A stretch of 64,000 bases of DNA from Moniliella sp. 'wahieum' (GCA_003971905.1 RSEE01000078.1:1-64000); one strand, 5' to 3'; counted from the first letter of the stretch, positions 2,843 through 54,734 are shown. Translations and numbers: made by a program. The notes: generated from the sequence alone by a model not told the origin.

Positions 2843-2994
2843 TGCATGATAGTCTGGGCTGGCGTGTTAAAGTACCAGGGGCCTGGGACCCACACATGTG
2901 ATACGCGTCTGATGATCTGATGCATGATGTGATGAAGTCCATCCACACCATGTATCATGCATGTGGTATGATATATGATGCATGATACATGATA
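2843..2994. repeat. Cluster of nnTNAnn heptamer arrays (CATGATG/TATGATA type)
   Basis: For example taTGAta-taTGAtg-caTGAta-caTGAta at 2967-2994; tgatgcatgat at about 2840 and 2918. Confidence 0.8.
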
Positions 2995-4385
2995 CACGAG
3001 GAAGTGCTATCGGATGACATTCTTAGTGCCTTCGCAGTCTTCACTTGCTTCTGTTGGAGGGGTAATGCTGGGGTTCCCTTGCACGGCACTCGGTGGATGG
3101 GTGACGCTCACTTACCGGGCGGAAGAGTTCCGCTCGCAGGGCGCGCGCGCCCTGCTCGCCTCATCTCCCTTCTCTCTCTCCTGTCTCCGTCCCTTCAATT
3201 CAGATGTGTTGCTTGAACTTTGCCTTCACGCCTTGTCTGAAGGCTGCATTGCAGCGGATCCATAGGATCGCGAGTGCTCCCAAGTCGCACTCTATAGCAG
3301 GTTCGTCTGCTTCGCTCTGTCAACATCTATCCCAGTGCGATGGGGCTTAGACAGAAGGGGGTTACCGAAAAGGGGCCAACCAACAGTCAGCATCCTCGAT
3401 TGGTGGGGATCCTTTCCACCTTCCGTTCTCGTCCCTCCTTCCCGCCTTTCCTGTCCAACTCCTGAACGTTTCCAGCCAAAATTGATTCAGTAATACAGGC
3501 AACCTCTCGTCTCCACTTGGCTGCATCATCTTCATCATCCAACCTCGTCCTCCAGCTTTCCATCTGCCCAGTCGCGCGAGCCTTCCATCAGCCGCGTCGG
3601 TTCTCCATACCACAGCATGTCGCGTGGGTTCCTTTGACAACCATGCCATCATGCCTCAGGCCTGGCAGCCTGGCAGTGTCTGTCCGCTCCACTGCATCTA
3701 CCGTCTCTCAGCCCCGGAGGCTTCAGACACGTTACTACCCTCCAGCCGGCGTATACGCAGCCTTGCCACGCGTGCAGCCGCCTCGGCTTCACGCCCAAAG
3801 GCTTCTCCTCCTCGCTCGGATAGCCCAAGCTCGAAACTACCGTGAGCCGTCTTTCACGTAAGGGACTGTCCCCACCAATGAGTGAGCCCCCTGGCAGGGC
3901 CCGCCTGCGACAGGGTCGTCGTAATTCACGTTACATGGATCGAGCCCGCCACCTCTGGACCATCGATATCCTTACTCCATCCTTCCACCAATCCCCTTTG
4001 TCCCCCCTCTCTTCTTGTCCTCCCCCCCCTCTTCTTGTCCTTCCTCCCCCACCTTATTTTTGTCGCAAAGACCCCAATTGCTTTCCACATCTCCTCCTGC
4101 TCCACCGCTCCGCGGTAGCCTTGTAGCCAGGTCGACGGCCGTGGGGGCACAAACGTGGGAGTGGATTGAAGGGGCACCGTGTGCCAGTGTGGTCGTTGGT
4201 GCCGCAATGGGGGCACCGGCGGTGAGTACGGGTAGGGGCATTTTAAGGGAGTGGAGGGACGCGTCGACGCGACTCTGCCATATGCCCCATAGTTGGCGCA
4301 GCCAGCCCCCAGCCGTCACGTGCAGGTCGGCGGGCAGTAGGGTTGTTGGCACTTTTCTTTGCACCCTCGCATATGGAACTAAAAG
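2995..4385 (-). repeat. Dispersed repeat, copy A (degenerate gene or transposon-derived)
   Basis: Near-identical to 14874-15975 from 'gaagtgctatcggatgacattcttag' through 'ggggcattttaagggagtggagggacgcgtcgacgcg...catatgg'. It carries a segment of about 3850-4120 that copy B lacks. A broken minus-strand frame begins MPLPVLTAGAPIA. No TIR, LTR or catalytic domain recognised. Confidence 0.85.
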
Positions 4386-4950
4386 ATGATGCATGATGCA
4401 TGATGCATGATGTTCGATGGTCGAGATTGTCGATGATGGAATCGATGAAGGGAACCCGTCACGCGTCACGCGTCACGCGTCACGGTAACGCGTGACACAC
4501 GGTGTGTGACTAGTGACTTCGGGATGACAGGTGACCGGTGACTTCGGGATCAGTGGTCAGTGGTCACTCCGGTCACTGGTCACCGGTCACCCTCATTGAA
4601 TCCTCAGTACCCTCGGTACCTGAGTACTGCCCCTTGGCCTGAGGCCTGAGGGCCTGCGTGCTGAGGCGCTGAGGCTGAGTACGAGTATTCACATTCACAT
4701 ATTCACATGTCGCATCCCGCTCCATCCGCGCCACGCCACGGCCACACGGGCGTAGTAGCGAACGCACCGACAGCTGCCGCGCTGACGCACCGACGGCTGA
4801 CGCGCTGGCATGTGACATGTGACATGTGACTCACAGCAGGTTTTGGCCACCGCCTGTATCTGCCCGGGTCAGGTCAGACTCGGATCTCAGAGTATACTCT
4901 CAGTACCTTCTCAGTCCTCTCCGTGCTCAGGCTGACCTCAGCGCTACTCG
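4385..4950. repeat. Dense field of nnTNAnn heptamer arrays
   Basis: gaTGAtg(caTGAtg)x3 at 4385-4412, (cgTCAcg)x4 at 4457-4484, plus ggTGAcc, ccTGAgg and tgTGAca arrays. Confidence 0.9.
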
Positions 4951-6327
4951 GTAGTGGTCCTACCGCCATCTCCCCTCTTTTGACCAACCGCTGCGGACTA
5001 GGGCATCCTCCTCTCCTCCCCTGGACTTGGCTGTGAGTGGACTGTGTGAGCAGTCACCAGATCAACAGAGTACAGACTCGCGACGCCAGGCGATGCCCCT
5101 TCTTGGCAAATAGGAGCCAAACGAAGGTGACAACTACATAGCGTTCGAGCAAATTTTGCGGCTTTTTTCACAGTCCCATTTGTTCACCGAGGGCCGCGGG
5201 GGGAAATGGACCGAAAGAGCAGTTGCACCGTGGCTGCTGTAAGTAGCACCGCCCTAGTTATAGAGGTTTGGTCTGTACTTAGTGTGGCCTGCGCCCCCTC
5301 CACATGGCGCCCCCACTCTGGTCCAATTGTAAGCCGCGCGCGTAGGAGACACCTCTGGCGCAGTCCTCTCTGTTCTTCGTTACCGCCCCCACCTCTTTGC
5401 TCAACTCGTTACTTCGTTCTCGCTTATCTCCTTTTGGTAGCTCTGACCGCGCTGTCTGCCTGCCGCAGTACGTCGCTACATGGCCGCGGTAAGATGAGGT
5501 ATGTGCAGCTGGGACCAACGTGAGTTGGAAAATACCCCTGTTGGATCGTTGGTTGTCTTGTTTCAGTAGGAAAAGAGGTGAGAACGGAGAGGCCGGAGAG
5601 GGGGAGACGGTAAGGCACTGATATAACCAAGGGAAGATGGCGGGGGTTGAGCCCGGAAGTGGATGGTAGGGATCATCTCGAAGTCTCGTGATATGGCATA
5701 GCAAGATAGCAGAAAGCATGTTATACAGGAGAACGATAGTGGTACCAGAAAACGTATGGTAAGATATATGAAAAAGGTCGATCAATGCCCGAAGAGAATA
5801 TGAACCGAGCCGTGCCGCACTAGCGGTAGCAGCGGGCGATTCGAAGCAAGTGCCAAATAGATTAAGATATGATGCTGACCATTGCATGGCGTCGGACCAA
5901 ATGTTCTCACGATAGTACGGACAAGGCATAACGAGATTGGGTTTGGTTGGCTAGTGCGTTTTGGGGGCCGATGCACGGGTGTACGAGCATAGCCAGGCGG
6001 GGAGAGCAATGATAACAAAATATTCGTAGTGGCAGAGGGGCGTAGTGCCAGTTCAGACTGAGCGGTCGGTGAAGGTAGGATCCAAGGGAGAGAGATGGAA
6101 ATGGTGTGTGTGGCGATTGCGATTCGCCACAGGAAGCCGAGACGAGCCAACTACCTCCATTACTGGATATGAAGTTGAAGTGCTGCCATCAGCCCGGACG
6201 GTAGGAAGAATACTCGCGTGGGTTGGGATGAAGAGAGCGCGGGCCAAAGGAAGAAGGCGTGTAAGCCTCAACGGGGCGGTCAAAGGACGCAGCCGATGAG
6301 GTTGACGGGGGCATTTCCCTCGCCGAT

Positions 6328-8605: not shown

Positions 8606-8959
8606 GCGTCGACGGGGGAGGGAGGAGGATATGCGGCGGGCGGAGAGTTGCCTGCGGGGCGCTTTTAGCAGGCATGGCGGGCCGCAGTGTGCGCAACCAC
8701 GGAACAGAAGTCGAGTGCGACTGCCCGTGGTGCTGAGGGGGAAAGGCTAGGGAGGAGAGGGACGGAAGAGGAGAGGGAGGGAGGAAGAGGGGGACGAAAG
8801 AGGAGGGGGAGGGAGGGGGAGGGGGACGGAGGTGGTGGTGGCGGCGGCGGCGATGGCGGTGGAGGTGGAGTGGCAGTGGGTGTGAGGATGTATCGCGCTG
8901 GATGCTGGGGTGGGGTAAGGTGCTGTGGGCGCTGGAAGACCAGCTGCTGGGCGCAGCGT

Positions 8960-11900
8960 GCTCAGTTGAACGTTGAACGTTGAACGGTCAGCGGTCAGCG
9001 CCAGCGCTCAGCCGCTCAGCGCGTCAACGCGTCAGGCTCCGCCGCTCAGGCTTCTGGCTTCTGGCCTCAAAGCTTCAGGCCCACCAGCCTCAGGCTCAGC
9101 CGTTCACTGGGTACGAAGCTTGAAGTATAGTATGCCAGTGGCAAGGTGACACATGTGACATGTGACCGGTGACCGATTGCAGTCACTAGTCACCGACCAG
9201 TCCGCACTGTCGATGGTTTATGATCGATGATATCACCCAGGGATCAAAGGAAGCTGAAAGTACGCGCTGAACGTTGGCTGAAGCGCTGAAGGTTGACGTT
9301 GAGGAGCTTGAAGCTTGAAGCTTGACGCTTGAGAGCTTGAGGGCTGGTGCTGCGCTTATGCGCTGATGCATGATGAACTTGACACAACTAGCTTTGAAAT
9401 GCGAAGTATCTAGTGAGTACCGAGTACCGAGTGAGTAGTACGATTGAGTAGTACTATTGAGTAGTACTAGCACGCTAGTGAGAATATTCCAACAGTAAAG
9501 CTGGTAACAAAAAGTAACCCAGTAACATGATGCATGAGTAACACATAACGCCTGAGGCCTGAGGTCTAAGATCTAAGCCCCAAGGGCCTAAAGAAAACCC
9601 AAGCCTGCAGACCAAGGAAAAACGGGTCATTAATTATTCAATTGTACTGACCGGTGACCGGCAACCGGTAACATGAACAGCCAACCGATATTCGGTAGCT
9701 GGTAACTGGCAACCAGTAACCGCGGATCGGGGATTAATTCGATTAATATTAGTCCTAAAGCTTAAAGCTTAAAGCCTAGCGAGCGCTTAAAGCTTACAAC
9801 TTAAAGTGAGGAAGATTGAATCGAGACACTTGTAGCATGCATGATGCATGACGCGTGACGGTAAACGTGAGACGCGTGACGCGTGACATGAGGCAGTGCC
9901 AAGCGCTGTTTAATGCGCTAATGCGCTAATGCGCGAAGCGCTAAGCGCTAATGCCCGAATGGTTGCGGCGTCTGTCTGATGTTGACGCCTGTTGGCGCTT
10001 GGAGCGACCCCTGGGAACGCGTGAGCCCATGCCCACGGACTAGATAGCGGGGGCCGGTAGATTGGCAGAACGACGAAGGTGGAGATCGGAGACCTGGAGG
10101 CCAGGCCAGGTGGGCTGCCGGTGTGTGTACCGAGTACGTATAGTGTCGCCGTTGGACATTGGACGTTGGATGTCGGGCTGTGGTGTAAACTCGGGTCCGG
10201 TGCCGGGGACGTGGCTGGCAGCCTCCGCAGCCTCCGCTGCTGATCAGGCGGGCAGGCCACGTGTCCATTGCATCATGTCATCAATCCTCGATCCTCGGCA
10301 TTCGACACTCCCCCAAAATTGGGCCGGGCTCAAGATGCCCCTTTGAGATCTGAGGATCTGAAGGCCAGACCAGACCAGACCAGACCAGCCAGGCCCCAGG
10401 GGCTGCCAAGAGCAGAGGCACAGCAGGAGTCATTTCCAGTTTGAAAAAATCCCCAAGCTGGATAGCGAGCGCCACACGCGGACAATTTTCAATCGGCTAT
10501 TTCACGCGTCACACGTCACGCGTCACGTCACACGTCATGCTCATTCATCGATCATCGTGAGCGCGTGAGCTTCATGTTCCAAGCGCCAAGCCAACTTCAG
10601 TTGTGTCCATGTTTGACATGATGCATGACACTATCACAGTGACACATTCTATGTGACTGGTGTCGCGTGATCTGGCACCCATAACATGCATGACATGGAC
10701 ACCGACGACGTCGTCCACGTTCAACTTCACCTGCTATCCGTTCGCTTCCGTTCTCTTTTCCCCATCGGCTGGCCCGATGCGGCCGCAGTCAGTCATCAGC
10801 GTATCAACGGCTCAAAACCTTGGATGTGCTTTGGGCCAGGGGTCCTGCGGCGCCCCCTGAGGCTGGCGCTTCCCACAAGTAGGTCCCGAGTACTTGTCAC
10901 CGGGTCACCTGGCCGGTCACCGGTCTCGGCGCCACTTCGGCACCCTTCCGAACGCAACATACCATACACTGAGCACTCCTATGTACTGACTTGTACACCG
11001 ATCGATGTTCCGAAGCGTCCGACAGGCCACCAGAGGGCAGAGCCGGGTAGGACATCGCATCATGCATCATGCATCATGAATTGAATGAATGAAGCTGAAA
11101 TCTCAGGTCTGAGATTGATAACTTCGATATAAAACTCGATAACTATGTGCATGTTGTCGATGAACTTAACCTGGGTGTGACGAGTGACTGGTCCCGTCCC
11201 GAAACGAGGGAGAGGGAATTATTAATTAGGCCTTAGGCCTTAGGGAACCCTGTTGTCCCTGCCGTGACGCGTGACGCGTGATCCCCGGGTCGGCAGACAT
11301 AGAATGGCTTATTGAATCGGAACTTAGCACAGCAGGGCACAGCTGGCACAGCTCCAATGTCGCTTGTTAATATGTTATGCATGTTAATCTTCAAGCTTCG
11401 TGACGCGCGTACGCGTGGCGCGTGGCCGAAGTGACAGGGATTAAATACCAACGCTTAGTCACTCGCTGGTCCCTGGCTGGTTTGCTGGCTCAGCGGATTG
11501 GTCGTTGAACGGGTTGAATTTGACACCTTCAGATGTTCACATGATCATCGGATCACCAGTCCGTCTCCGCCAGCGAGATGGCGTCACATGTCACATGTGA
11601 TTGCCCGCGTCACACGTCAGGCCTCAGGCGCGTCAGGCCGCGCATCAGGCCCACAGGCCTCTCAGCCCATCGTGGAATCGCAAGTCACAATGGCATGTAT
11701 TGTCAAGCTTCAAACTTCAATCTTCAAGCTTCAAGTGAAGCTTCAGTTCCGAAAAGTTCCGCAAGGTTCGGAAGCGAGCGGCCCGCGGAGGCGCGGAAGA
11801 GTTTCAGACAGACGCCTGTATGTATTAGCAATCGCTTCTCGTAATTCCACCTTCCGATTTCCAACCTTCAACGTGCGTGTCCCACGCGATCCCCCGAGCC

Positions 11901-14190
11901 CCCACCCCAGTTGCTGTTGGAAATTTACCGATAACCTATGAATGATTCATGCACGTAGGGACGTATAGAGTTCGGAGGTACGCTGCCACATGTGCGCCTG
12001 TTTTTGTTTGGCATCATGTGGATCATGCATCAAAGTGCAACAGGCCAGTCTGTTGGGGGACAGAGACCACAGCCCAGTGCACGCGTACCAGCGCGTGGCC
12101 GAAAGCGCTTGGAATATGGATCCCACGCCTCTTCTAACAACACATGGAACAAGGGAACATGCATTGGTACAGAGGACCAAGTTACTGATGTACTGTGACA
12201 CATGTGACATGTGGCATGTGATGTCCTGAACCTCGAAGCTTGACATGTTTGACAGCTCAGGCTGAGCGACGTTACTCGCTCATGCGTCACGCGTCACTAG
12301 TCACTAGTCACTGTGACCACGCCACGATATGACCATGTCACGTGATGAACGTGGCAGCTTCCCTGAGATCTGCGATGCGGCGCCCACGGAGGCATCGGAC
12401 TCCAGAAGATTGATTCTTCCTGAGGCCTGACGTTGAAGCAGGCTTCAATCTTCTGAGCGCTGAGCCTCAGTGCTGAAGAAGGGCTGACACTGTGCCGAAG
12501 CACTTAAATGCATAATGGGGTCTAGGCGTGGCACCTCGGGAAGCGGCACAAAAGGATCAGCCAGCCCCGGTGTTGCGCACACTGCGGGATCGGACGCGTG
12601 ATGCCGAATCGCACCCACTCAAGTATAACCCTTGCTAATGCCAATGCTTCAGTGGCCTTGGCCATCGAGGCCATCCAGGGTCGGTGGCCAAAGGGCTGTG
12701 CTGTTGCTTGTAACGAAGGCTACCAATTAGGCGCTTGGCCATTCCCACGCTGTTTGGGGTGCTGAGGCACTCACAGCATTCTCGCTGGACTAACTAACCC
12801 ACCTCTGTCACACGTATCACGCCTGTCGTACTATGATTTTGGTGAGACCCTCAGGAAGGAGAAGCGCAATCATAAAGGGTCATCGGCCGGTCATCGACTC
12901 ATCATGCATCAGGCCGGAGCCTCAGGACTCCAGGTCTCATCGATCATCATGCATCACTAGTCACTAGTCACTGCCGTGGGCCTTTCTCGGACGATCGCAG
13001 AGCATCGAGCATCGGAACCTCAGGCCAAGGTTATATTACCGGTTACCACGCCTGATACCACATGCCCCGCATATGCCGTTCCTCTTTGTTATGACGAGGG
13101 CTGTCGGCGAAGGCTCGGTGCGTATATTTACGCCACCTGGACGCCACCCATCAGCGTCATCACGGTCTGTTCTGCGTCGCATATCACATGTGACACACAT
13201 GTGAAATGGGTCACTAGTCACTGGTCGCTGTCATAGTCACGAGCTTCAAGCTGCAGGCTTCGCTGCCCCCCACATCTGTAGCCCCCCTCCTCCCCCCGAC
13301 CAGCCATCAGCCGCAAATCCCACACTCATCGGCGACTAATGACGTTAGTGACAGAGGCACCTGCACACTTCACATTTCACCGCAACACCGCGACCCCTCG
13401 GCCGAAAGCCAATTGTTAAACGTTAGTCATCGAAACGGGCATGCTGCATCGCAAGTGGAGCTGCTAGAGAAACTGTTACTGTTACGCACACGTGAACGCG
13501 CCACATGGGCACGCTACATGTGTTCCACACGATCGCCGGAGCGTCGGAGAATGAGTTCTTCATGAGGTTCCGAGGCAGACGGTCGGGTAGAATGGATCAT
13601 AATCCGGTAACCGGGGGTAACGGTAACCGTCGTTGACCGGTAACGTGGTTCTAACCTACCTGCTTCTGGTAGGAAGTACTCTGAGGTATCTGGAGGCCTT
13701 GAGCGCCTGCGCCCGCTATGATACACCAAGTGATGCTAGTGATGCTAGTGATGCATGTAACATGTAACGCCTGAAAGGCTCAAGGCCTGGTGCACCTGAT
13801 GAGGCGCTGTGCGCAGATATTCGAACCCGTCAGATCTCAGACTAGATTGAACACACAAGGGGCTGTTATTTATGCAACTGGCACCGGCTGATTGTAAATA
13901 GGTGTCGGGGAGTTGGTGCGCCAGGGTCGCCAGTTGGACATCGGGCTGGACCTGGACGGACATATGTTGCAGCCTGGCACAGCAGGGCACAGCTCGCATA
14001 CCAGCACGGTTAAGTAACCGGTGTTTAATAGTGAAACGCACGGTTACCAATATGGCTGATGTGTGCTTCTGGATCTTGTCTGTACTCAAAACATAGTACT
14101 CAGCACAGACCTAGAATTTAGAAAGGGCTGATGAAGACTCAGACTGAGAGTACTCAGACTGGGTTTACTAGTTACTGAGGATCAGTGCGT
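8960..14190. repeat. Long field of nnTNAnn heptamer arrays upstream of the bHLH gene
   Basis: Arrays at 8965-8999, 9145-9174, 9754-9774, 9840-9860, 9917-9931, 11224-11244, 12285-12312, 12452-12465, 12945-12972, 13729-13769 and many more. No credible CDS. Confidence 0.9.
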
Positions 14191-14873
14191 TCAGTCACAG
14201 GGACCTGCATGCCCCTCATCCATACCCCCCGTGCGGGCCGGGGGGGATGGCAAAAAAGTGGATTGGGCCTTAGGCCATAGGCCTTATTCTGAAGAGCGAG
14301 AGCTCACAAGCAATACATATGGCTCGTGATTTCCTCCCACGATCCATTCTGGGTTTTTCACCTTGCTCGTCGATCCATACGATACAGGGAACTTCTCCTG
14401 CTCTGAGTTTCCTCTTCTGATATCCTCATCTCTTCGCCTCCCATGACAGCGTCTCAGGTCTCAGCTCTCCAGCTTAGCGCTTATCCCAGCAGCTCAGGTT
14501 TCGGATTTCCCGCATCCAATCCGTAACGCTTTCTGCACCAGCTTTCAGGGTCAGCTCCAAAACCAGTTCCTTTTCCATTCCAACTGGGGAAGCGTTGTCC
14601 CACCCGGCTGCCTTTTTAAGTTATTTTGCTGGTTGTTCATCACGTGCAACGATTGAAATAACAGAGGAATAAGAGTTTGTAACTGACACCGTGGAGGCCA
14701 AACCATCGTTTAAAAGCACTCGTAGATCAACATGTACTCGAAGTCAGTGAGGAAACACGCCCCACAAGTGATTCAAACGTCATTTTCTCGTAGACATCCT
14801 TTTGAGCTGCCCGAGCCCGCATGTATATAGGACCATACGATGAAAATTTGGTCTGTGGAAGAACATATATAAA

Positions 14874-15975: not shown

Positions 15976-16029
15976 ATGGACGATGGATCGCAATGGTTGA
16001 TCAACAAGGCCCTACCGATGGCTTGAAGC

Positions 16030-16850
16030 CTAGAACTTCAACTGAAGCTTGAAGCTTGCACCTTGAAGAGGCTCTCTGTCAGGCGCGCTCTCCCTTTTTG
16101 GAAAAAGGACAAGTTAAAAGCTACCTCTGTTTTGTACCCTTGCATCACGTTCCACAGTCCGCCCCAATAGCCTTTTGTCGGTTCCCACAAACCGCAACTC
16201 CAGTCGATATGATAGACGGACTCCAGCGGCCTTTTTGGGCTGATGCCACCTTGTCAACTTCCACTATATATAAACCGAAGACAACGGGGGCGTCGTGTGG
16301 CTTGCTCCGCACGGTGGTGTGGCGAAGAAGGGGCCAATAAGTGGTAACTGGTAACGGTGTAAGTGACAAGTGTGGCACCTCAATGGCAAGTAGCAAGGGC
16401 CCTTGTTTAAGGGCTTTTGAAGTGAAGCTAGTGAAGCTTGAAGCTTGAAGCTTGAAGCTTGGAGCGTCCTGTTCAACGTATACATAACTGTCTGCGGTCT
16501 TGCAGACCACAGTGCTGTCATACATGTCTCAGTGCTTATAACAGAGCCTAACCTATAATCTAACCCACAAACACACGCCGTTGGAAATAAAATAGACCCT
16601 TTACCAAGACCCGTTGAAGGCGCACTGCTCTTCAAAACGTCGCACGCGCCCGGCCGGGGTCACCGAGACGAGTCTCATGACGTTCCAGGCGATAATAGCA
16701 ATGAATTTAACGTTGAACGTTGAACGTTGAACGTACTTGAACGTTCAGTTGAACGTTGATCGACTAGTTTGACTGGCGATTTCGGGAAAGACCTCTAGGA
16801 AGGCAGGCGACATGAGGAAGAGAAATGATCGATGATCGATGATATATGGA
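16030..16850. repeat. nnTNAnn heptamer arrays
   Basis: agTGAag-ct-agTGAag-(ctTGAag)x3 from 16421, (gtTGAac)x3 at about 16712, aaTGAtc-gaTGAtc-gaTGAta at about 16824. Confidence 0.85.
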
Positions 16851-19800
16851 CTCGGAGCCAGAGCTGGATCTGGGCACAGAGCAGCATCGATATGAGACAC
16901 AGCCTGTTCCCTGGGTCGGTGAGTCTAAGGGTAGTGCTCGAGAGGTAGATTAGTTATGGGCGGAGACTCTGATCTATAGGCGGGCAGAAATACGTTGACG
17001 GAGCATAATATGGAATGCGGGAGGGAGGCATATGGCCCATGGCCCTACACTATCTCAAGCACGCACACAGCCGCCTTCTTTTTGGAAATCAGATCGATCT
17101 CTTTTTCTGTTGTCAAATATGCCACCACACGAAGAAGATCTACCCACCTATGAGAAGATGAAGGGTGGATCTGAGAAATGAGGGTACTACGGGGTGGCGT
17201 TTCGTTGTTCAACGTTCGTGTAAGACCGGAGGAACCCAAGGGGTTGGGTGACCGGTGATGAACCTCTGGAAATTTAGAAAGCAATACAATGGCGGTGGTG
17301 GTGGTTAGGTCTAAGCCTTATGCCACACCTAATGGAGACAGGGGTTCAAACAAAGCCTGAGTATACACGAGGAGACTTCGTAGGTCAAATAAGGGGCAAA
17401 GGGTGATAAGGCGCCTTGGCCTCTGTACGGGACCGCGGTTCGCAACAGTTCGCCTGCTCAGCATTAGCTCTTGCTCAGACCTCATATTGAACGGAAGCCT
17501 GTTGAATCTGGTGCTGTGCTTTCACCGGAGTCTTTGGAACGGGGCCCCACCGTCGTGAGGCCCAGCTCTTCAAAAGGGGGCGGTTTTTGTAGAATCCGTT
17601 CGGTGGAAAGGTTGTGAGTGTTGGTATGGGTCAGGGCAAGCCTCCTCTTCGGGGACACGAACGATTAAACGTACACTCTCTCGTCCCACCACTCTTGGCA
17701 CAGACCGAAAAAACCACCAGGCCTCAAGCAGAGCACTCCCTAGTATATACATGCGTTCATGCAATTCATGTGTCTTTTGCAGAGCTTTAAAGCTTTATTA
17801 GACAAAGGTTTGCGCCTAAACGTTTCCCTCATTCACATATACTACAGAACACCTTCTTTCGAAAACGTTGACGGCCGGGCTACTCACTTCCACGGACCAC
17901 TCATGCCTCAGACTGAAGTCTCTTCCCTCTTTATCTGGCTCATCAAGTTCTGTTACTGTACCAACAGCACTCAACCTCTACACCACACTAATGTCACCGA
18001 ATGACTAAGCTCGCTCCAATCATTTCCAATTCCAATTCTGCATCCTGTGTCTCCCGCTCTTCCCTTCGCTCTTTTGCTTCTGTTATCTGCCTGATGCCTT
18101 CTGTTTTTTCCTCCCACGAACGATCAGTTGCCTTTCCCTCCGCCTCTGACAGGACCTTGTCTCCCTCATTAAGTCCCGACTGTTACATGGGGCGTTTCAT
18201 GTAGATAGTGCCGAAGCCAAAACCAACTCCATTTTTGGGAGGTACTATCATATCACGAGATGCATGTGTTGGAGATGAGCGGATGAGGGCTGTTGAGCTG
18301 TTGACGGTTATCAACACTACATAGTCGTGATTTTCATGGATGGAATACTATGGAACATCTGTCTCCTCAGATCCGCAGCCCTAGCCCCTCGCGCCAAGAG
18401 TATAGTTGCACCCCACATCGTACCAGCCGCAAAGATGATCTCCTTATAACGCAGTCCACATAGCTCCGCCACTAATACTGTTCCGACTATCGTCCCTCGC
18501 CCTACTATCTTCTCGGAATGTCTCTTTCCCGCTCAATGAGTTTTTGTTCCAGGCATCTCTGTGTAGGCGAATAACAATGACGCCCCGAGCCGCTGATGGC
18601 CACACAAGAAGCACAATAGGGCACAACTGTGATCAATGTTTACCTCTGAGCCGTTAACCAGACTCCCGTCGTCCGTGGCGATAGGTTCGACTAGCCAGGT
18701 TCGATACAATCACTTGCTGTGTCTTGATTTACTATCCTCTGTTACTCACCCATTATCTTTCAGAGTTTTGGGCAGATTGCTATCTCTCTCTCTCTTAGAC
18801 ACACGGCGTTACACCCAACTGTGACTATTGCTTATTGACCGTTCTATACCCTTACACCAGCTCAACAGAAACAATGATTTCGCCTCGTTTTGCGGGGGCA
18901 TTACCAGGTCTTGCCGCTGCTAACGTTCACCCTCGACGCTCTTGTCTTGCGTCGGCCGAGTAGACAAAAATCAATTTCTCCAAGCTCTCTGTTGACATTA
19001 TCCTCGCATGCGTCGTCGGCTTTTGATTTGACAGGATGCTTTGAACACCCTATCAGTCAACTTCTCCTGCTTATTGTGAAGATAATGAGTGACTATGTCA
19101 GCAGCTCTCTTGTTTTGGTTACGGATATGAACCCACAGACACGACACGTGTGGGTGTGGGAGCAGCTTCACGGTATGGACAGGAATGGGTTGAAGTCGAA
19201 TTTGAGATGGATACGTGGCCCCGTGAGGGCATTACCACTGCGGGGTTATGACTTATTATTAGTATACCACACACCGCCGGGCACAAGATGTGGTTTATAA
19301 CGCATGACCACATGTGGGCGAGAATATTAGGTCAACTATGCTTTTCCCCTTCACATGGTGCTGCTCCAAGGGCTGCAGTGTTCGAAAGATCATTTGATCG
19401 CAGATATCTGAATGGACACCATTCTTCCCCATTAGTAATGTTCCTCCGTGATGGGAGAACTGTTGACGTGAGATTAAAGGGTAAATCGATGTGTTTGGAT
19501 CTAGACGGTTGCACCAAGCGTTAAAAGCCAATGATCGACCCAACTCTGGCTCTAATCCATCACCTTCTCCTCATCATTCTGCCCGTCCGGCTCCCTAGGC
19601 CACAACATTAGTAGTAGAGGGCAGTAGTGTTCCACAGGGTACGGATACTCCACCGTAATTACATTTCTTTGGTGAGATTTGAGCCGAGTTGAAGTGGGAA
19701 TTCGGTTCATTTTCAGAAAACCCCAACAGATGTGAATCCACTGCAGATAGGCAAGGGAGACGAGGGGAGATAAGAGGAGACTGTCACGGGCTGCGACGGA

Positions 19801-20145: not shown

Positions 20146-20643
20146 ATGGGGATCTTTACCCCCACCTTCCATTCTCGTCAATTCTCGTCCCCATTCTCGT
20201 CATCCTTTCGTCCTTTCCCGCCTATCCTGTCCGACTCCTGCCCGTTTTCCAGCCAATTGATCCAGTACAGGCAGCTCCTCTTGTTAGCGTCCGACATCTC
20301 CTCCGACCTCGTCCTCCAGCCCTTCGTCAGTCCAGTCGCGCGAGCCCTCCTCTGGCCGCATCGATTTCCAGTCTCAGTTGAGGCAGTGTTTGTCCGCCGC
20401 TGTCTCCTCCTCCCGTCCCTAAGTCCCGGAGGCTTTAGACATGTTACTACGGCCCAAGCCGGTGCAGACGCAGCCTTGTCACACGTGCAGCCGCCCCACC
20501 AAAGGCCTCTCCTCGTCCCAGCTCCGCTCGGATACACCAACCAGCCCAATCCCGAAACTACCATGAGTCGACCTACCGTCGCCTAAGGGATTGTGCCCCA
20601 AAAACCCCCAGGCGGGCCCCCTGGCGGCGCCCGCCCGTGACAG
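20146..20643 (-). repeat. Dispersed repeat, copy C (partial, more diverged)
   Basis: Shares 'ccaccttccattctcgtc', 'acctcgtcctccagc', 'ccagtcgcgcgagcc', 'ccggaggct.tagaca.gttacta', 'cgaaactacc' and 'cccctggc.g.gcccgcc.g.gacag' with copies A and/or B. Confidence 0.75.
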
Positions 20644-20939: not shown

Positions 20940-21370
20940 ATGAGCGCATGGTGCATGATGCATGATGCATGATGCATGATGATGGTGCATGACCAGCGTG
21001 GGCCTTTCTCCCCACACACCCCACCCTTGGCCGCCCCAACAGACAACCGGGTGTGGCCGACGCCATTCCAAGACGCGGACGGCGGGCAAGGCGAGCAGCC
21101 TGCGTGTGCTGGCTGGTCTGTGGCCAGGATGGCGCATCACCCACCACTGGTCACCGGCACCAGGCGACCATCGGTGGGGTGAGCTGCATCAGCCGTGTGG
21201 GCCCACAAAAAACCTCTGTGTTGGTCTGTGCACTGCAGCGGGGGGCCAGCGCGCTGGTGAGCCTCCTCAGGCGCTCAGGCCTCACCTCGGCCTCAACGCC
21301 GAGCCTTATTCGCGCCGCGTCTTGCTGCCATCCCTGCGTTGGCGGGGGGTAACCGGTAACCGGTAACCCC
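20940..21370. repeat. nnTNAnn heptamer arrays in the NMO upstream region
   Basis: (caTGAtg)x4 at 20954-20981 and (ggTAAcc)x3 at 21348-21368. Confidence 0.9.
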
Positions 21371-22844: not shown

Positions 22845-23290
22845 TCAGTCGTGTACAGTCAGTCCCAGAGGGTACAATGCAAGACAGGAAACGTGAACAA
22901 GCGCGAAATAGCGGAGTAGTGGAGAGAGAATGAAGCAAGATGGGGCGTGCCTCGAAATGTTGTGGTGCGAGGAGTGTGGCAGCCTCTCTTGGCTATGAGG
23001 AGATGCCACCTGCCCCCCCCCAAGGCAGAATAAGCTAATGCCCATGCCGGCTCGTGCCCCATCAGCATACTATTGCGCGTTGCCGAGGGAGTTTGACCAC
23101 CAAGCCATCCAGAGCCTTGGTAACGTTCACCTGATATCCGAGCTGTGACGTGTCCGTCAGACCAAACGCCGAATCCAGCATACCATTCTCATTGTCCCCC
23201 CCCGGTTCCTCCAGTTGGTCAAACACTTCCGGTTCGAGGATCACATGGCACGTACGCTAGCCATGGCCAGCAACTTACTGGTGCTCATTA
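22845..23290 (-). pseudogene. Possible degenerate small gene with weak Cks1-like motifs
   Basis: HVILEPE...MGIS..LGGG.WH...PH order loosely follows Cks (YRHVILP...LGI.QS.GW.HY...PH). It needs stops and frameshifts and is weak. Confidence 0.2.
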
Positions 23291-23469
23291 ATCATTGGCC
23301 AAGTGAGGTAGCGTGGAACTGTACGGATGGCGGCGAGAGGGTAGTGGGAATGAGGGAGAAGAGAGAAGAAGAAGAGCAGCAAAAGGAAACCTTTTGCAGA
23401 GCGAGACGAAGCAGATGAATGATCGAGGTGACCGATGATCGATGATCATGCACCGACCGATCACCGATC

Positions 23470-25924
23470 ATGGTTCCAATACTCATCGATCGTCTTGCCC
23501 AAGGCCCGAGTTCTCCACCTCCATCGACCAGCTCCCCCCTCTTCCATCCAGCCCATGCCTGCTGCCGTGGCGGATGCGGGTGCGACGAGGAGCATTCCCA
23601 CCACTCGCTCGCTGTGCTGGACACGGGTGGCGCCAATTTGCGCGTGTGGCTCTTTGACGGCCCGGCCACGCCCGCTGCGCTCAAAGCGGCGGCGAGCGGG
23701 ACGTTGGACGCGCTCCAAACGAGCGGAGCCAATGTGCTGGTGCTGCCCAATGTGGTTGTGCGCCCCCGTGTCGGCGGTGCAGCTGGAGGAGGCACTGCGT
23801 CCGCGTCTTCTCCCGTACCTATCTCGCTGGCCCTGAGATTGGGGAGCAGGTAGGTGTCTATGCCCGCCTTCAACTCCGTTCGCCCGTCGAGCGTGGCTTT
23901 GTCACCGATGGGCCGCCCAAACGCTCTCCTGGTCTACCTCGCTTCGCATGCACATGCGCTCCAGCAGCAGCAAGAGCTTCTTTCTGCACCATCGAGCAGC
24001 TTGAGCAAGCGGACGCGAAGAACGGGCAATCCAGCCCGGAACCTGACCCTGTAGCTCCGGACGGCAAGTCTGATCACCCCTGCTCCCACCCGGCGCAAAT
24101 CGTCGGCGCGCACATCCACTACCCAGGCAGACGTGGGACAGCCATGGTCCGGGCAGGGCCAGAACCATTGCTGTGGGGCCGGACAGTTCTGGTCACGGAG
24201 CCTTACTTCAACATGCCCGAGTTGGCCGCTGCGATGGACACGCTTCTGTTTGAAGAGTACGGCGCCGCGGCCGTCTTGCGTGCTTCTCCTGCCGAGCTGG
24301 CCGCGTGGTGTCTTCGTGTCCCTCCTGCCACAGCCATCACGGATGTGGCCGGGGAAAAGTCCAGGGTCGACAGCAGCCATACTCTCTCTCCCTCTCCGGC
24401 CGAGGACGCACCTCTACCTGCGCCTGGGCCGACGCCGCCCATACGCGCCGCGCCTGCAAAACGGAAACGTGGGCTGGGAACTGACAAGGCCGCGGGCGCG
24501 ATTGCGACGATGCGTTTCCTGAGGCAGCCTTGGTACTTGACTGCGGCCACAGCTATTGCCATGCCGTACCGCTAGTCCGGGGACGTGTTGTCTGGGGGGC
24601 GGTCAAACGGTAGTTGGACATTTCGACGTGGCGGCGCTCATAGCTGACGTGTGTGTTCGTCCAGCCTTGATTTCGGCGGGAAGCATGTGACCAATCTGTT
24701 GAAAACATCGCTTAGCTTTGGCAATGGGACTGTCTGAGGATGCATGGTTGGTGGGCAAAGTCAAAGAGCGCACTACCTTTGTTGCCGCCTCGGCTGGGCC
24801 CAGTCAACGCCAAGAAGCGCGGAAAGCCGCCCAGTCCATCTTGAAGCGGGATCCGAGCGAACGGGATCGTTGCCTGCCTCATCGATGGTCTTTTGCGACC
24901 CTAACCGAACTGTCGAAACTCGCTGCGATCACGCCTTGCGCGGACCCTATCGCGCTTGAGTACTTCCTCCCGGACTACTCGATCCCGTCTTCTGCTCCTT
25001 CCCCTACGATGATCAAGGACGCGACCGTAACGGAACCCAGCCCGCCTCACCCTTCTCCATGTGTCCTCCAGCACGCTTCCAACGCCTCTTACCCTAGAGA
25101 AGATCGACCGGCCACCTTCTGACCGGTATGGCACGATTGCTCCCTCGGATGCGGCCATGCGGGAATTGCTGCCCTTATCGAGCAAACAATGGTCCAGTGA
25201 ACAAAGGGACCGGTTCCTCTGTCCTCCCCAGCCGTTACCGATTCGCAACAAACGTTCTGCCGTACCTGGAGCCGAAGCACAGGAGGAGGAGGCACAGACC
25301 CTTCGCCTCACCACCGATCGCTTTGTCCACACAGAAAACTTTTTCGCCCCGAGCGGGTACCAGGTCTGCCATCCATTTCCTGAGCAACTGGGCCTAGCGC
25401 ACCTGGCAGTGGCCGCTGCGTCCGAGGCGGAGCAATGGTTTTGCACCGCGAACTCAAGCAACACAAGCGGGGTCGTGGCGGGCGGGAGAAAGGGGTGGGG
25501 GTGGGGCTGTTGTTGGCCAACGTGTTGTTGTGGGAGGGGCGGCGTGCATTCCTGGTCTAACGGAACGATTGGAGGAGGAACTACGACCGTTGGCACCCGA
25601 AGCGACGCCGTCCGGGTTCGTGTTCCCCTCAACCCCATCTCGGCCGCTGCCGAGGGGGCGCGCGTTTCTGCTGGCCTCGCTGGCTACTCTGTATCCGTCG
25701 ACGGCGGCGGCGTCGCGCCGTGCTTCCGCTTCCCATGCCAAAGACCAAGAGTGGCAGGCCCAAGCGTTGGCGGACCTGCCGGGCCGATTTACAACCAGGC
25801 AAACCTACCTCGATCGGGCGCGCGGGACATGAGAAATGCTATGGCGACGGCCACGGCTACGGCAGGCCCAGGCGCACACGGCAACGGCAGAGACGACATA
25901 GACAAGATAAAATGCTTAAAATAG
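23470..25924 (+). CDS. ARP6: Actin-related protein 6 (SWR1 complex)
   Basis: LAVLDTGG, VLVTEPYFNMP...LLFEEYG, VLDCGHSYCHAVP, VKR|LDFGGKHVTNLLK (intron 24610-24664), LEYFLPDYS, LTTDRF, GGAACIPGLTERLEEELRPLAP. Low-complexity insertions and frameshifts. Confidence 0.85.
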
Positions 25925-33529: not shown

Positions 33530-36500
33530 CTCGGCGTGAGCTCAGCTCTCAGTGACCCCTGACGCGCACGCTCACGCCTCAGCACCTCAGCCTGACGCCC
33601 AGACTCCCCCCGGTAAGCTCACCGACCGAGCGGCTCAGCGCCAGCGGGACGGGCCAGGCGCTGGCCTGTGCTGACAGGCGCCGGCTGCCTCCCGTCCAGT
33701 ACAGGGCGAACTTGAATTTTTGAGCTGAGCACGCAGAGTCCTGCCCTACTAGCACTACCCGTGGCGGCCGACGACCCAGATCGTCTTGACAGAACTAACT
33801 TATCAAGCTCGAGCTTGAACAGGGCCTGAAGGCGGAGTACAATTGGGTCCTGGGCCTGCCAGAGCGCTAAAGACTGTGAAGGGTGTTGTTCAGTGTTCAG
33901 TGTTCAGTGTTCAGCCACGCTTCACATGGAGGGCCTCAGTCAGCGCGTGGTGCCGCCTGCATACTAATAGTGGCACCGATGTCTCAAACACCCGGTTTTC
34001 TTAGGTGCATTCCATCCGATATTCCTTCCTAGAGGGCAGGAATATCCTCTAACGTTGAACGTTGAACGCCCAACGACGCGTCACGCGCAGGGGGGTTGGA
34101 ATCTCAGAAAGTTTCTCACAGGCCTCGGCCTCATCGATCATCGAGCACCCGCACTGGTGCACAGTACGCGTACAGACAGGTGCTGCGGCTGTACGCAAGC
34201 GGCTTTGAGACGCAAGAGGTTCATTAATCGATTAATCATGTTACGTTCAACGTCACGTTCTGTTGAATGGAAGCTCAGCCTACGCGTTCAGCGAGCGCCG
34301 CTCAGGCTCGGCGTTCAGTCTCAGATCCCAGTCTTACCAGTTACTAGTTATCGGTTACCGGTTACCGGTTACCGTTACGCGTTACGCGTTACCGGCCTCA
34401 CCAAGTGACTAGTCACAGTGACTGGTGGCGCGTGACGCGACGGAGGGGCCCGAGCATGTGTCATCGTAATGTGATCCATGTGACACGGGACGGTCAATGC
34501 CCTGCCGCCCAGCGCCCATGTAACACGTAAATCAATATAAATAGCCTCCCAGTTCGATTTCAGTCGTCCTCTCAGATCTCAGTGCTGGCCTGTATTGGGT
34601 TCAGCCGCTCAGGCGCTTATTAGGCCTACTCAGTACTCAGTTGAGTACTCAGTGAGTACTCGATAGTCCTCTTCAGTGTTCCGAACGCAAAAAGGGCCAT
34701 GCTGTACGGCGTGTGGACCACATGCTGCAGGGACCTGATGTGACCGGATCCCGATGCCAAGCGAGACAGCAATCAAGAACTGGGTCAATAGACGATAGGG
34801 ATTGATTGCTGGTGAGCGATAGTAGAGAATAGCGGAGAGGAGGAGGAGGAGGGTAGAAGAGAGAAGACTAAGAGCTACGACTGCCGGGACCTCTAGAAGG
34901 AGGCCAGTCGGCCAGCCACACTTCCGCCCGAGCGGAACTAGCGGAGCTAGCCGCTGGATGGAAGTGGCTGGGAGCGCCAGAGTCCGGCTATGCTTTTGGC
35001 ACACGGCACTAGTGTCCCAACAGACCCCGTCTAACATCGCCCATTCTGCATCAGTCCAAATACAAACCGTCGATCCAGCTATTGCAACACGACATCGAGC
35101 TACGCACTAGTCACTACTGTCATCGAGTCAGCTAGTCCTAGTCACTAGTCACAATCATCTCGCAATAGGGCTGAGGACAACATCCATAACTCGGTACTTA
35201 CAAGTTATTAGGTCCCCAAATCAGTAACCCGTACACCGAGATCTGAACCCAGACATGCGTACTACGCCTCTAGTTATGATATTCCGACAATCAACAATTG
35301 AAGCCACATCAACCGGCGGCCATCCAGCATGCCAGGCCAGTACCAGGCGCTGCCCAACCATACCCAGGGCATGTGGCAGGTGACATGTGACATGTGAAGC
35401 ATGTGAAGCTTGAACAAGCCGTCGGAGAGACAGGTATCCGGTAGGAGCGCGCACACCTGAGATGATCCAGATGACTTTTTATTATAATAGAGTGTGTATA
35501 CCCGCAGGCGCTCGCGCTCAAGCTTCAAGCTTCAAGCTTCAAGCTCAAGCTTCAGTGTTCTCAAGCTCTTCAAGAGCTTCAAGCCTCTCTCCGCACGTTA
35601 ATATTTAATGTTAAACGTTATCGATCTGTTATGTCATTACGCGTTACGCAAGACACATCTCGCGTGTGGCATATAATAGTGTGCTTGGACGGTGAAATTG
35701 GTTGAAAGGGCAATCGACGACCCCGCGCTCATGCGACGCTCAGCGCTGATGCTCAACTGAGCGCGAGCATGCCATCCATGGCAATGTGACACAGAGAAAG
35801 CCAAGGCGGAGATGAGATCGATGAGACCGAAAAACAACGTAGTGGGCATTGAAGTTCTTTTTTTCTGGCAGCAACAAGAGTTGGTTTGGTACTGAGTACT
35901 GATTAATGATTAATGATTAATGATTCGGAGTACTCAGACACATACTGAACGTACTGAGTAGTACTGACGCGAACGTTAACCGGTACGTTAACGTCGTTAA
36001 CCGCGTATCGCTGACGTATCATATATCATCGATGATCTCGATCATTAATCATTCCCTCATTGACATTCCGTACCATAGCGTAACGGCGACCGGTAAGCGA
36101 CGGTAACCGGTAACCCCCCCCCGTATATAGTAGGTCACTAGGTCACTATACAAATTGGTAGAATATGACTTAGGAAGCACTCGCGATCCTATATGGATCA
36201 GCTGCAAAGCAGCCTTTAGATCTTCAAACAAGGCGTGAAGGCAAAGGCTGACTTAGCGCTAACGTCTGCAAGCGTCAAGCTTCAAGGTATGAGATTTGAC
36301 ATGGCGTTTTTGCCCGTGGAATAAACAAACCAGAATGTTTCGCCTCTCCACAAACAATCGCGTGCTGAGAAAGAAAGAAGATCGACGGTGGCCGGTGGTG
36401 TAGGATGTGTGACATGTGATTGATCTCATCGATCATCATCGATCTCTCCTCATGCTATTGAGACCATCGGCCCTGACCGGGGTGGGTGACCGGTGACCGG

Positions 36501-36965
36501 TGACCGGTGACCCCTCCATTCCACACCGGGCTCAGCTGCCGCCCTCTCTCCTGTTGCTGCGGTGATGGGTTGGATGACTCGTTGACGCTCCTTTTGTTTG
36601 TTGGGTAGAGAAGCGGCTTGCTGGGCTTAGAGGGCACTTGCTGTTCACACTCTCATTCTCCCAGATCTCACTGTTGACCGTTGAACGTTGACCGGTGACC
36701 CTGAATCAGGCCTCCTTCAATATAAATCAGCCATAAATAGCTCTAGGCCACATCGGCCTTGTAACAGGTAATAACCTTACCGGTATTGACCCGAGATGAA
36801 ATCTGAGATCTGAGATGGGAGATCTCAATCGTTCCCCGGACCCAATCCACTTCTCGGGGTACCCGCAGTAGTACGCAGTGGCGCGTGCCGTATCCCTGGA
36901 TCCATTATGCATCTGCAGATCCACACATGCCCATCCCCATCCCCATCGCAGGTCACTAGTCACTG
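33530..36965. repeat. Dense field of nnTNAnn heptamer arrays
   Basis: Arrays at 33888-33915, 34332-34393, 35379-35415, 35516-35543, 35596-35609, 35891-35925, 36133-36147, 36485-36512, 36673-36700 and 36802-36815. Confidence 0.92.
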
Positions 36966-52874: not shown

Positions 52875-53756
52875 CCTGCTCCCCTGCTCCCCTCGATTCG
52901 GCTCATTTACTACGGTGGTCCATTACGATTTCATACCTCGCTTCAGATACCTACGTCCCTCATTTCCTACCTATCCTACCTATCCACCCCCCCTCTCTTT
53001 CTTTTTATGCTCCCCGTTCTCACATGTTATCTGCTTTACGGCACCCGCGTCTCACAACCCATGCACACGTGGGTATACCATTTTCTTTTGCACGTTTTCC
53101 CTTCGTCTTCGTCCGTTAATACCGGTTACCCCATACTATCTATGCCCATTTACCCCTTGCATGCCCGTCGACTGCTCTCGTCCTACCTTTCTATGCTTGG
53201 GCCCCTCTCCGTGGGAGGCGGTAGGGGGAAATGATTAGTTGCGTGAAGTAGCTGACCGTCTCGATTGTGCTTCTTGGCCATAGTTAGGAGACCATTTCCA
53301 GCCAATCAACGTAACACCTACTAAAATTGGCCTCCAAGATGGGCAGTCCCTACCAGTGAGTACTCCGTCGCCCACCCTGTCCCTCTAAAGCAACGGCAAT
53401 GTCCACAGCCTCACAACCCCCTATCGCTCTTGCTTGAATGCTATTTGTCTGTGTGGCTTCCACGTACTCTCAACCTAAACCAAGTGCGGGGGGAGAAGCA
53501 TGGCATGTCAAGGACACATGAATAAGGGCAAGGTCCCTGTGGGTAACACAACGGACCTGCTCCAACACCATAGGGGAGATCGAACACTAGAGGCGAGGGA
53601 GCGCGACCAGTGACGACCCAATGCGACTTCTTGCCGTGGGGGCAGAAAGATTTTTTGGGGAGGGAGGATGAGCAGAGCAGAGGGGTGCCGGCGCCTACAG
53701 AAGCAGCCAAGGCCCCCTCCATTCATATGCTCAACACCCAATAACCCAAGGGCAAC

Positions 53757-54269
53757 TTAGTTGGTGATGATGCCCTCGAAGCGCTGGCGGAACCAGGCAG
53801 CGGTCTCCTCCTTCTTGACGCGGTGAGTGTAGCCAACGCGCGCCGTCTTCTGCTTGCGGCGCGCGACGCGCACACCAGGACGGGTAATGACGCAGAAAAA
53901 GTCCAAGCCGAAAATACCAATCGAGGGGTCGTACTTGATGCCCAAGTCAATGTGCTCGTTGATGCCAAAGCCAAAGTTGCCCGTCTCGGAGAAGTTGCGG
54001 CGGGAAAGCTCGTACTCCTTGACCTTGAGACCGCGCTCGAGAATCTCCTCGGCCTTAGGGCCGCGGACCGTCACGTGGGCGGCAATCTTCTCGTTACGAC
54101 GGATACCAAAGCCACGCAGCGTGTAGCGCGCCTTGGACGTCACAGGCGTCTGGCCCGTCAGCTGCTCAAGCACCTTGCAGGCACGCGTCGGGTCACCCGA
54201 TGCACCAACCGAGCAGTTGATGACGAGCTTGTCGATCTTAAGGTCCTTCATGGGGTTGGTGGTGGACAT
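53757..54269 (-). CDS. RPL11: 60S ribosomal protein L11 (uL5)
   Basis: [14 protein letters not shown]...[19 protein letters not shown]...RRNEKIA...[27 protein letters not shown] at 54269; 5'UTR intron 54457-54283. Confidence 0.97.
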
Positions 54270-54676
54270 TTTGGAGAGCTTGCTGCCAAGAATAACAAGG
54301 AGGTTAGCGCACCATCCACGCAAAGCGGAGAGTTGGGCCAGGTGCCCACGTCCACCGGCCTCACCCCACCGCATGCCCATCGCCAAAGCAAAGAATGACG
54401 GTGCGAGCGAAAGCATGGGCATGGGCCGGGAGAGGCCTGCGCGGGAAGGAGACTCACGCGAAGACACGAGGGTGGCGGTCGTGGTCGTTGGGCCGGCAGA
54501 TTGCCAGGCGAAGTGCCCACGCAAAGGATGGGCTCCAAGCATCGCCACTGTAGGGTTGGGTCTGCTGCGGCGCATTATTCACACTGACCGTGTGCGTAGT
54601 AGGGTTGCTCCAGCGCGGCTCTCCTCCGCCCTCTTCTTGTTCCAGCAAAAGCACACAGGGCTAGGTTCAAACGTTC

Positions 54677-54734
54677 AGTGAACGTTGAACAATTTCAAAT
54701 GGCACAGACCATGCATCATGCATCACGCATCACC
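54677..54734. repeat. nnTNAnn arrays inside the RPL11 / EXPERA divergent promoter
   Basis: agTGAac-gtTGAac at 54677-54690 and caTCAtg-caTCAcg-caTCAcc at 54714-54734. Confidence 0.8.

Follow-up and report, generated by a model that had tools for sequence, protein, structure and literature searches.

The DNA analysed here, 64,000 nucleotides of Moniliella sp. 'wahieum' (GCA_003971905.1, RSEE01000078.1:1-64000; hereafter the window), carries a series of protein-coding genes and, between them, islands crowded with heptamer arrays, in which a trinucleotide core of the form TNA (TGA, TCA, TAA or TTA) recurs with a period of seven and the 4 nt between neighbouring cores are very often a palindrome. 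Two TNA cores joined by a palindromic spacer are called a link below, and links that share cores make up a chain. We consider it probable that these arrays have built up from the excision footprints left by a cut-and-paste DNA transposon or a small family of such elements. The islands are intergenic and promoter DNA; coding DNA and several other non-coding stretches carry essentially no links. With extents of about 2.8-5.0, 8.9-14.5, 16.0-17.3, 20.9-21.4, 23.25-23.5 and 34-37 kb, the islands come to 12,850 bp and hold 136 of the 148 links, a density of 10.6 links/kb versus 0.23/kb elsewhere, and 232 of the 870 TNA cores within them belong to a link. The arrays are listed here by island, without strand; +8 and +9 denote joints in which a whole 7-mer is repeated at a distance of 8 or 9 nt.

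2840..2996: island 1, chains of TGA-TGCA and TGA-TATA/TACA heptamers, stopping exactly at the start of non-coding repeat A (see below)
4386..4830: island 2, (TGATGCA)x3.9, (TCACGCG)x4, TGA/TCA-CCGG, TGA-GGCC and (TGACATG)x3, with a +9 form, GGTCACT-CC-GGTCACT, at 4562-4577 and +8 forms at 4660 and 4693
8965..14483: island 3, the largest, with dozens of chains and many different palindromic spacers; lag-7 identity at 9001-10000 is 0.43, versus 0.24 for other lags
16043..17258: island 4, (TGAAGCT)x4.9, (TGAACGT)x3.7 and (TGATCGA)x2.7, with a +9 form, AGTGAAG-CT-AGTGAAG, at 16421
20946..21368: island 5, (TGATGCA)x4.3, TCA-GGCC and (TAACCGG)x3, upstream of the nitronate monooxygenase gene
23285..23470: island 6, TCA-TTAA and TGA-TCGA, downstream of the nitronate monooxygenase gene
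34051..36962: island 7, 42 links with the spacers ACGT, TCGA, CTAG, CCGG, CGCG, GATC, GTAC, CATG, AGCT, ATAT, GCGC, TTAA and TATA, and +9 forms at 35393, 35568, 35811 and 35986
54679..54733: a small outlying cluster, TGA-ACGT-TGA, TCA-TGCA-TCA and CATCAC-G-CATCACC, in the promoter region upstream of the uL5/L11 gene

The genes among which these islands lie are as follows.

7.5-7.9 kb, minus strand: HLH factor
21.7-22.5 kb, plus strand: nitronate monooxygenase
42.2-43.5 kb, plus strand: acyl-CoA-synthetase-like AMP-binding enzyme
45.4-46.1 kb: calcineurin-like phosphoesterase
51.3-52.6 kb: protein kinase
53.8-54.6 kb, minus strand: ribosomal protein uL5/L11
55540-57059, minus strand, and 57776-59822, plus strand: two divergent HSP70 genes
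61.5 kb: C2H2 zinc finger

The best named relatives are Basidiomycota, mostly Ustilaginomycotina: Thecaphora, Violaceomyces and Ceraceosorus for uL5 (82-84%), and Tilletiaria, Acaromyces and Exobasidium for the monooxygenase (~60%). The nearest proteins of all reach 68-76%, which indicates a poorly sampled lineage. Open reading frames (ORFs) opposite the second HSP70 gene match Pfam PF10712 (NAD-GH), which we take to be an artefact family derived from the antisense of HSP70, and Rfam and tRNA scans of the window returned no matches. The block at 24000-33900 is GC-rich, at 60-69%, and both of its strands carry long overlapping ORFs; it has glycine/GGC-type repeats, no Pfam match and no footprint, and is probably one or more low-complexity genes.

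That nnTNAnn arrays of period 7 with palindromic spacers occur here had been claimed in a preliminary description of the same DNA, and our counts confirm that the arrays are real and far above chance. Counting exact tandem runs with two or more copies gives 68 at period 7, 11 at period 8 and 10 at period 9, and in 48 of the 68 period-7 runs the unit is TNA plus a 4-nt palindrome, a composition that chance would give to ~2.7% of heptamers. The composition of the remaining 20 (8 with TNA and a non-palindromic spacer, 12 without TNA) is about what the background would lead one to expect. Taking all TNA-N4-TNA pairs in the window, we find a palindromic spacer in 148 of 286, and order-1 and order-3 Markov simulations produced a mean of 7 (standard deviation 3, maximum 16) per ~100-118 pairs. 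The effect is specific to TNA cores: the palindromic fraction is 63/81 for pairs of TGA, 44/68 for TCA, 13/25 for TTA and 8/20 for TAA, and it lies between 7% and 20% for every other trinucleotide core, so that a comparison with chance and with other cores, run within the window, yields a strong excess at TNA only. TGA and TCA account for 107 of the 128 same-core palindromic links. The recount also agrees that 15 of the 16 possible palindromes occur as spacers in the 64 kb and that AATT is absent, and all 15 spacer coordinates given earlier are correct to within 3 nt; wherever the earlier description of the arrays could be checked, it proved right.

The spacers themselves are predicted by the local flank, as the earlier account had it. 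When the 148 links are grouped into their 108 chains, 30 of which have at least two links, 82 chains have an outer dinucleotide identical to the spacer half beside it on at least one side, where chance would give ~12%; both outer dinucleotides match in 26 chains, only the right one in 30, only the left one in 26, and neither in 26. If a site is written abTNAxy, with primes for complementary bases, the typical object is TNAxy-y'x'-TNAxy or its mirror form abTNA-b'a'-abTNA, that is, five bases in direct repeat and two as the inverse complement. The first form occurs 82 times and the mirror form 80 times, versus 0.08 and 0.2 in order-3 Markov simulations.

The length of the periodic runs points the same way. 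A tandem duplication of 7 bp must yield at least 14 periodic bases, which is four beyond the two cores and their spacer. Among the 63 chains with two cores of the same kind, the number of extra periodic bases is 0 in 2 chains, 1 in 8, 2 in 22, 3 in 12 and at least 4 in 19; the run thus falls short of 14 nt in 44 of the 63, and most two-core arrays are therefore not plain 7-bp tandem duplications. At the mode of exactly two extra bases, both lie on the right in 11 of the 22 chains and on the left in 10, and in a single mixed case there is one on each side. Such a balance of left and right outcomes is what would be expected of a symmetric dimeric enzyme.

Nine chains contain two types of spacer. 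In 8 of these 9, each spacer is built from the flank on its own side, left from left and right from right, and the 8 centre on a core with non-complementary flanks, which would be the ancestral site. Chains of this kind cannot be produced by duplicating whole units, and they are exactly what the flank rule predicts. Three of them, together with the longest chain in the window, read as follows.

9156..9172, plus strand: TG-TGA-CATG-TGA-CCGG-TGA-CC, a mixed chain whose left spacer is the b'a'ab of flank TG and whose right spacer is the xyy'x' of flank CC; its ancestral site would be TG-TGA-CC
11219..11242, plus strand: mixed chain AA-TTA-TTAA-TTA-GGCC-TTA-GGCC-TTA-GG
12287..12310, plus strand: mixed chain CG-TCA-CGCG-TCA-CTAG-TCA-CTAG-TCA-CT
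35893..35923, plus strand: longest chain, with five cores, AC-TGA-GTAC-TGA-TTAA-TGA-TTAA-TGA-TTAA-TGA-TT

Further evidence comes from repeats at distances other than 7, which the preliminary description had not listed. Direct TNAxy repeats number 92 at distance 7, 21 at distance 8 and 26 at distance 9 (other distances 4-13, the 14-nt multiple aside). Eleven whole TNA-centred 7-mers are repeated at distance 8, and in 10 of these 11 cases the base between the copies is complementary to the end base beside it. At distance 9 there are 15 such repeats, and 10 of them have a middle dinucleotide that is reverse-complementary to the two bases next to it (chance ~1/8). The five misses at distance 9 are coding-like 9-nt periodic repeats at 3524, 41301 and 57465-57483, and inside the islands all ten distance-9 cases obey the rule. 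Simulation yields 0.1 objects of this palindromic (P) type at distance 8 and 0.02 at distance 9, versus 10 and 10 observed. P-type joints are also specific to the TNA-centred register: among isolated repeats they make up 5/6 at distance 8 and 6/7 at distance 9 for TNA-centred 7-mers, and 3/9 and 1/11 for 7-mers in other registers. The +8 and +9 joints are complete 7-bp duplications split by P nucleotides, the mark expected when a transposase excises and seals its flanks as hairpins. Because the whole 7-mer is retained, the duplication's length and its register are both determined, and duplications of 3 bp and 5 bp are excluded. Representative joints are the following.

13729..13753, plus strand: +9 footprints in series, AGTGATG-CT-AGTGATG-CT-AGTGATG, CT being the reverse complement of AG
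35393..35408, plus strand: +9 footprint TGTGAAG-CA-TGTGAAG, CA being the reverse complement of TG
9917..9931, plus strand: +8 footprint GCTAATG + C + GCTAATG, within a period-8 TAATGCGC array

The last of these belongs to a tract (9911-9954) in which a period-8 array, (TAATGCGC)n, passes into a period-7 array, (TAAGCGC)n, and the period-8 part fits serial +8 footprints, each a 7-mer plus one P nucleotide. Two shorter duplications were considered as the source of the joints and rejected. A 5-bp duplication (TNAxy) with two P nucleotides fails because the +8 and +9 forms duplicate seven bases, and the TNA would not lie at the middle of its cut; with a 3-bp TNA duplication and four inserted bases, P tracts off the TNA end would come out as TN'A. 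In all, 13 links combine inverted cores with a palindromic spacer, including those at 11736-11745, 13184-13193, 34642-34651 and 36026-36035. They have the form TNA-xyy'x'-TN'A, a perfect 10-nt palindrome, and their flanks follow the rule only partly; P tracts of 4-5 nt would fit them. Of joints in which a single base is replaced (xyy'b or xa'ab), only 1 was located.

Several other repeats lie near the islands. A dispersed direct repeat of ~1.1-1.4 kb is present in three copies, A (2996-4401), B (14875-15988) and C (20208-20643); A and B share 80-81% identity, and C matches each of them at 69-74%. Substitutions among the copies show no codon-position bias, so the repeat is probably non-coding. 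It has no terminal inverted repeats (TIRs) and no footprints inside, and the heptamer arrays begin at or near its ends. An alignment of A and B searched for +7 indels at TNA sites contained none inside the repeats, the arrays starting where homology stops. Two pairs of inverted dispersed repeats were also found: 425-603 / 17992-18187, which are 85% identical and bracket 17.4 kb including islands 1-4, and 3218-3294 / 36159-36246, which are 80% identical. Purine-rich arrays of the GGGAGG/GGAGGA type and C/T-rich low-complexity arrays adjoin the islands at 8749-8880, 37267-37351 and 4001-4064 and are unrelated to the TNA rule.

How might such joints arise? The preliminary description had proposed a 7-bp TNA-centred duplication, hairpins on both flanks, opening of these at 2 nt from the apex and growth of the site by 7 bp with the palindrome of either flank, and the P nucleotides in the +8 and +9 joints support this core; the hairpins and the element that would make them we infer. 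An element would insert through 7-bp staggered cuts, duplicating a target abTNAxy centred on T-N-A. At excision the transposase would seal both flanks as covalently closed hairpins, which a host nuclease would open, mostly 2 nt off the apex, leaving self-complementary 4-nt overhangs at both ends, xyy'x' at the left flank and b'a'ab at the right. If end joining then retained one overhang and lost the other, the product would be abTNA-xyy'x'-TNAxy or abTNA-b'a'ab-TNAxy, 7 bp longer than the target. Were one hairpin opened at or near its apex, both full duplications would be kept with 1 or 2 P nucleotides between them, giving a +8 or a +9 joint. Every +7 event would also create a perfect odd palindrome (y'x'TNAxy), at which the overhangs would be identical and cohesive, so that further +7 events would be clean and repeated visits would extend the array. 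Clean repeat events of this kind, possibly with some slippage, would account for arrays of up to five cores, and given how saturated the islands are (232 of 870 cores), repeated hits on one chain need just a moderate preference. The nuclease Artemis is known to prefer a 2-nt offset, which leaves a 4-nt 3' overhang. Flank hairpins are formed by hAT, Transib, MULE and RAG enzymes (PMC5499845), and Pso2, a fungal relative of Artemis, has been implicated in Ds footprints (PMC5873905).

Several observations weigh against excision footprints as the source of the arrays. A Pfam scan of the window's 253 ORFs with 110 aa or more matched no transposase family, including the DDE transposases whose presence the preliminary description had led one to look for, and none of 597 pairs of identical TNA-centred 7-mers 20-3000 bp apart enclosed terminal inverted repeats, so that the window holds no TIR element with 7-bp nnTNAnn duplications. 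The density of footprints is extreme and regionally confined, with 136 links in 12.85 kb, and could have arisen only if the same few kilobases had been hit over a long period, while adjacent non-coding DNA at 0-2, 14-16 and 17-20 kb is almost without links. The joints are more uniform than the footprints of hAT elements in experiments, where 28 types were found among 128 events in C. albicans (PMC5873905). Finally, the array at 9415-9432 reads TGA-GTAC-CGA-GTAC-CGA-GT: its second and third cores are CGA with the spacer still palindromic, which suggests either that a mutated unit was copied and some growth occurs by slippage, or that C is tolerated in place of T. The searches for an element cover one 64-kb window and leave room for it elsewhere in the genome. 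Searches for TIRs with duplications of 3, 5, 7 and 8 bp in the window returned arrays matching each other only. In metagenome contigs, three copies of TGA-A[C/G][C/G]T occur at 122 or more loci; among the matches listed there was no relative and no element, and these were isolated single-unit arrays, (TGAACGT)n and (TGAAGCT)n, the listed loci with several unit types being long or AT-rich and having at most ~1 link/kb versus 10.6/kb in the islands. It is possible, if rather improbable, that the agent is an undescribed or domesticated hairpin-forming transposase with a TNA-centred 7-bp target, one that re-hits the same promoter-proximal islands and prefers its own footprint palindromes; heptamer microsatellites would then arise and grow through scars, not slippage, and footprints would make up a measurable share of intergenic DNA.

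The lack of an element, TIR or transposase in the window is also the main reason to give weight to repair of breaks in which no transposon takes part, whereby a host nuclease, or breaks provoked by palindromes, would act at TNA-centred sites and the hairpin-capped or folded-back ends would be processed into the same 7-nt additions, part inverted and part direct. The density and regional confinement of the events and the highly stereotyped joints would suit such a process. We nevertheless regard it as unlikely: a simple hairpin-forming break would merely add P nucleotides or delete bases, whereas the +8 and +9 forms hold two complete 7-mers, which implies a 7-bp staggered opening with fill-in, as in integration. 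P tracts without a loop would, moreover, favour hairpin opening over fold-back priming, and we know of no host nuclease with such TNA-centred specificity, although no exhaustive search for one was made. A more familiar explanation is that the arrays are ordinary microsatellites, grown from pre-existing palindromic heptamers by slippage or unequal exchange, perhaps with hairpins favouring growth. Arrays do reach five cores, 19 of the 63 two-core chains are compatible with duplication of a whole 7-bp unit, the CGA-cored unit at 9415-9432 was propagated, and unrelated metagenome contigs contain (TGAACGT)n and (TGAAGCT)n arrays in isolation. But the other 44 two-core chains are too short for whole-unit duplication and follow the rule of five direct plus two inverted bases, in mixed chains one core serves two unlike units, P nucleotides occur in the +8 and +9 joints, and the effect is limited to TNA cores across 15 different palindromes. 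Slippage may contribute to the growth of arrays and cannot create the rule; as their origin it is largely refuted, and we think it very unlikely.

Selection for cis-regulatory arrays, with TGA/TCA half-sites spaced 7 bp apart for a DNA-binding protein, would explain why the arrays lie in intergenic and promoter DNA, and TGA and TCA do resemble bZIP half-sites. Selection on binding does not predict a spacer made of the flank and its reverse complement, however, nor would one expect 15 spacers, P-type +8 and +9 joints, or half-sites that are direct and not inverted, and we find this explanation highly improbable. To an artefact of assembly or sequencing we give next to no weight: coding regions of the same contig are clean, and no error mode known to us writes flank-dependent palindromes solely at TNA sites in intergenic islands.

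Taken as excision footprints, the arrays suggest that scars of excision rather than slips of copying built these repeats. P-nucleotide footprints are already known, as are transposons of Basidiomycota that duplicate 7 bp. The literature we searched, which covers few subscription journals and no Repbase Reports, contained no earlier description of a TNA-centred target, of a near-deterministic 2-nt joint, or of footprints building up into heptamer arrays that fill islands. Our account rests on one 64-kb window, and it is from the footprints there that we infer the agent. If it is true, the window is a natural archive of well over 100 excision events that can be read base by base, and from it one would learn, with no experiment, how a transposon and its host's end joining behave: the target rule nnTNAnn, a duplication of 7 bp and hairpin opening at an offset of 2 nt. 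It would also mean that microsatellites can be created and extended by a route independent of slippage, and that footprints by themselves can contribute 7% or more of the sequence in some intergenic islands (136 x 7 bp in 12.85 kb). Any genome could be searched with so strict a rule, which could then trace the past activity of hairpin-forming transposons after the elements themselves have vanished.

Known systems resemble the arrays in part. Bacterial heptanucleotide repeats, such as the cyanobacterial STRR and the Xanthomonas GGGAATC repeats, likewise have a period of 7, are intergenic and occupy many loci per genome, but they are prokaryotic, consist of one or a few fixed non-palindromic units and follow no flank-dependent rule. 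In maize, the PIF target has a T-(A/T)-A trinucleotide at its centre inside a longer odd palindrome, and excision of PIF/Harbinger elements is mostly precise. The arrays resemble that PIF target in their trinucleotide centre inside an odd palindrome. PIF/Harbinger elements duplicate 3 bp (PMC12730594), whereas the duplication here is 7 bp, the cores are mainly TGA and TCA (107/128), not a TWA of 3 bp, and joints of 7-mer, P nucleotides and 7-mer are incompatible with it. Transib and RAG, the latter in V(D)J coding joints, share the flank hairpins proposed here and the P nucleotides left by off-apex opening (PMC5499845), with a 5-bp duplication in Transib where whole 7-mers are duplicated here. 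The misfit to hAT (8 bp), Harbinger (3 bp) and Transib (5 bp) that the preliminary description had noted holds for the canonical families and does not establish a new system. Its view that the system is unrecognised is unproven, since hAT7 and Kyakuja elements with 7-bp duplications have already been described in Basidiomycota (PMC12730594).

Kyakuja (KDZ) elements of Agaricomycotina have 7-bp duplications and termini CA..TG and lack TIRs (PMC12730594); their likeness to the agent sought here is one of duplication length in Basidiomycota, and the window shows no such element. The hAT7 families of Pucciniales (Kojima 2025, December 2025; PMC12730594) combine hAT transposases with 7-bp duplications, again in Basidiomycota, but were described in rust fungi, whereas the proteins of the window are nearest to Ustilaginomycotina, and this likeness too is one of duplication length, not of target consensus; the window contains neither a hAT7 element nor its transposase. 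The hAT norm is 8 bp, with variants of 5, 6 and 7 described, and the 7 bp read from our 7-mer, P, 7-mer joints match the hAT7 variant only (PMC12730594). Symmetric T...A target motifs are found among hAT elements, nTnnnnAn in Hermes and nnnTAnnn in TcBuster (PMC10512250); nnTNAnn has the same symmetry with T and A at different positions. A hAT transposase would be a DDE enzyme with a BED finger and a hAT dimerisation domain, and none of the 253 ORFs scanned matched a transposase family. No short TIRs flanked by the duplication occur in the 64 kb, and the sequence signature of P-nucleotide footprints is present (10/11, 10/15, and 82 + 80 joints of the 2-nt form), with a hairpin as its putative source. 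In yeasts, Ac/Ds footprints combine deletions with P nucleotides whose centre is the complement of the element-adjacent base, with few predominant types (PMC5873905). As in the arrays, hAT footprints of Ac/Ds in plants, S. cerevisiae and C. albicans keep both target copies, joined with short deletions and P nucleotides that are attributed to flank hairpins opened close to their apex, and few types predominate (PMC5873905). The arrays differ from Ac/Ds in that the duplication is 7 and not 8 bp with T and A at target positions 3 and 5, one joint type dominates (two P nucleotides replacing two bases), and the footprints are piled into arrays that fill islands. For the enzyme family we tentatively prefer one of hAT type that makes a 7-bp duplication, with a confidence well short of even, and the remaining probability is shared by Kyakuja/KDZ, MULE and an undescribed family.

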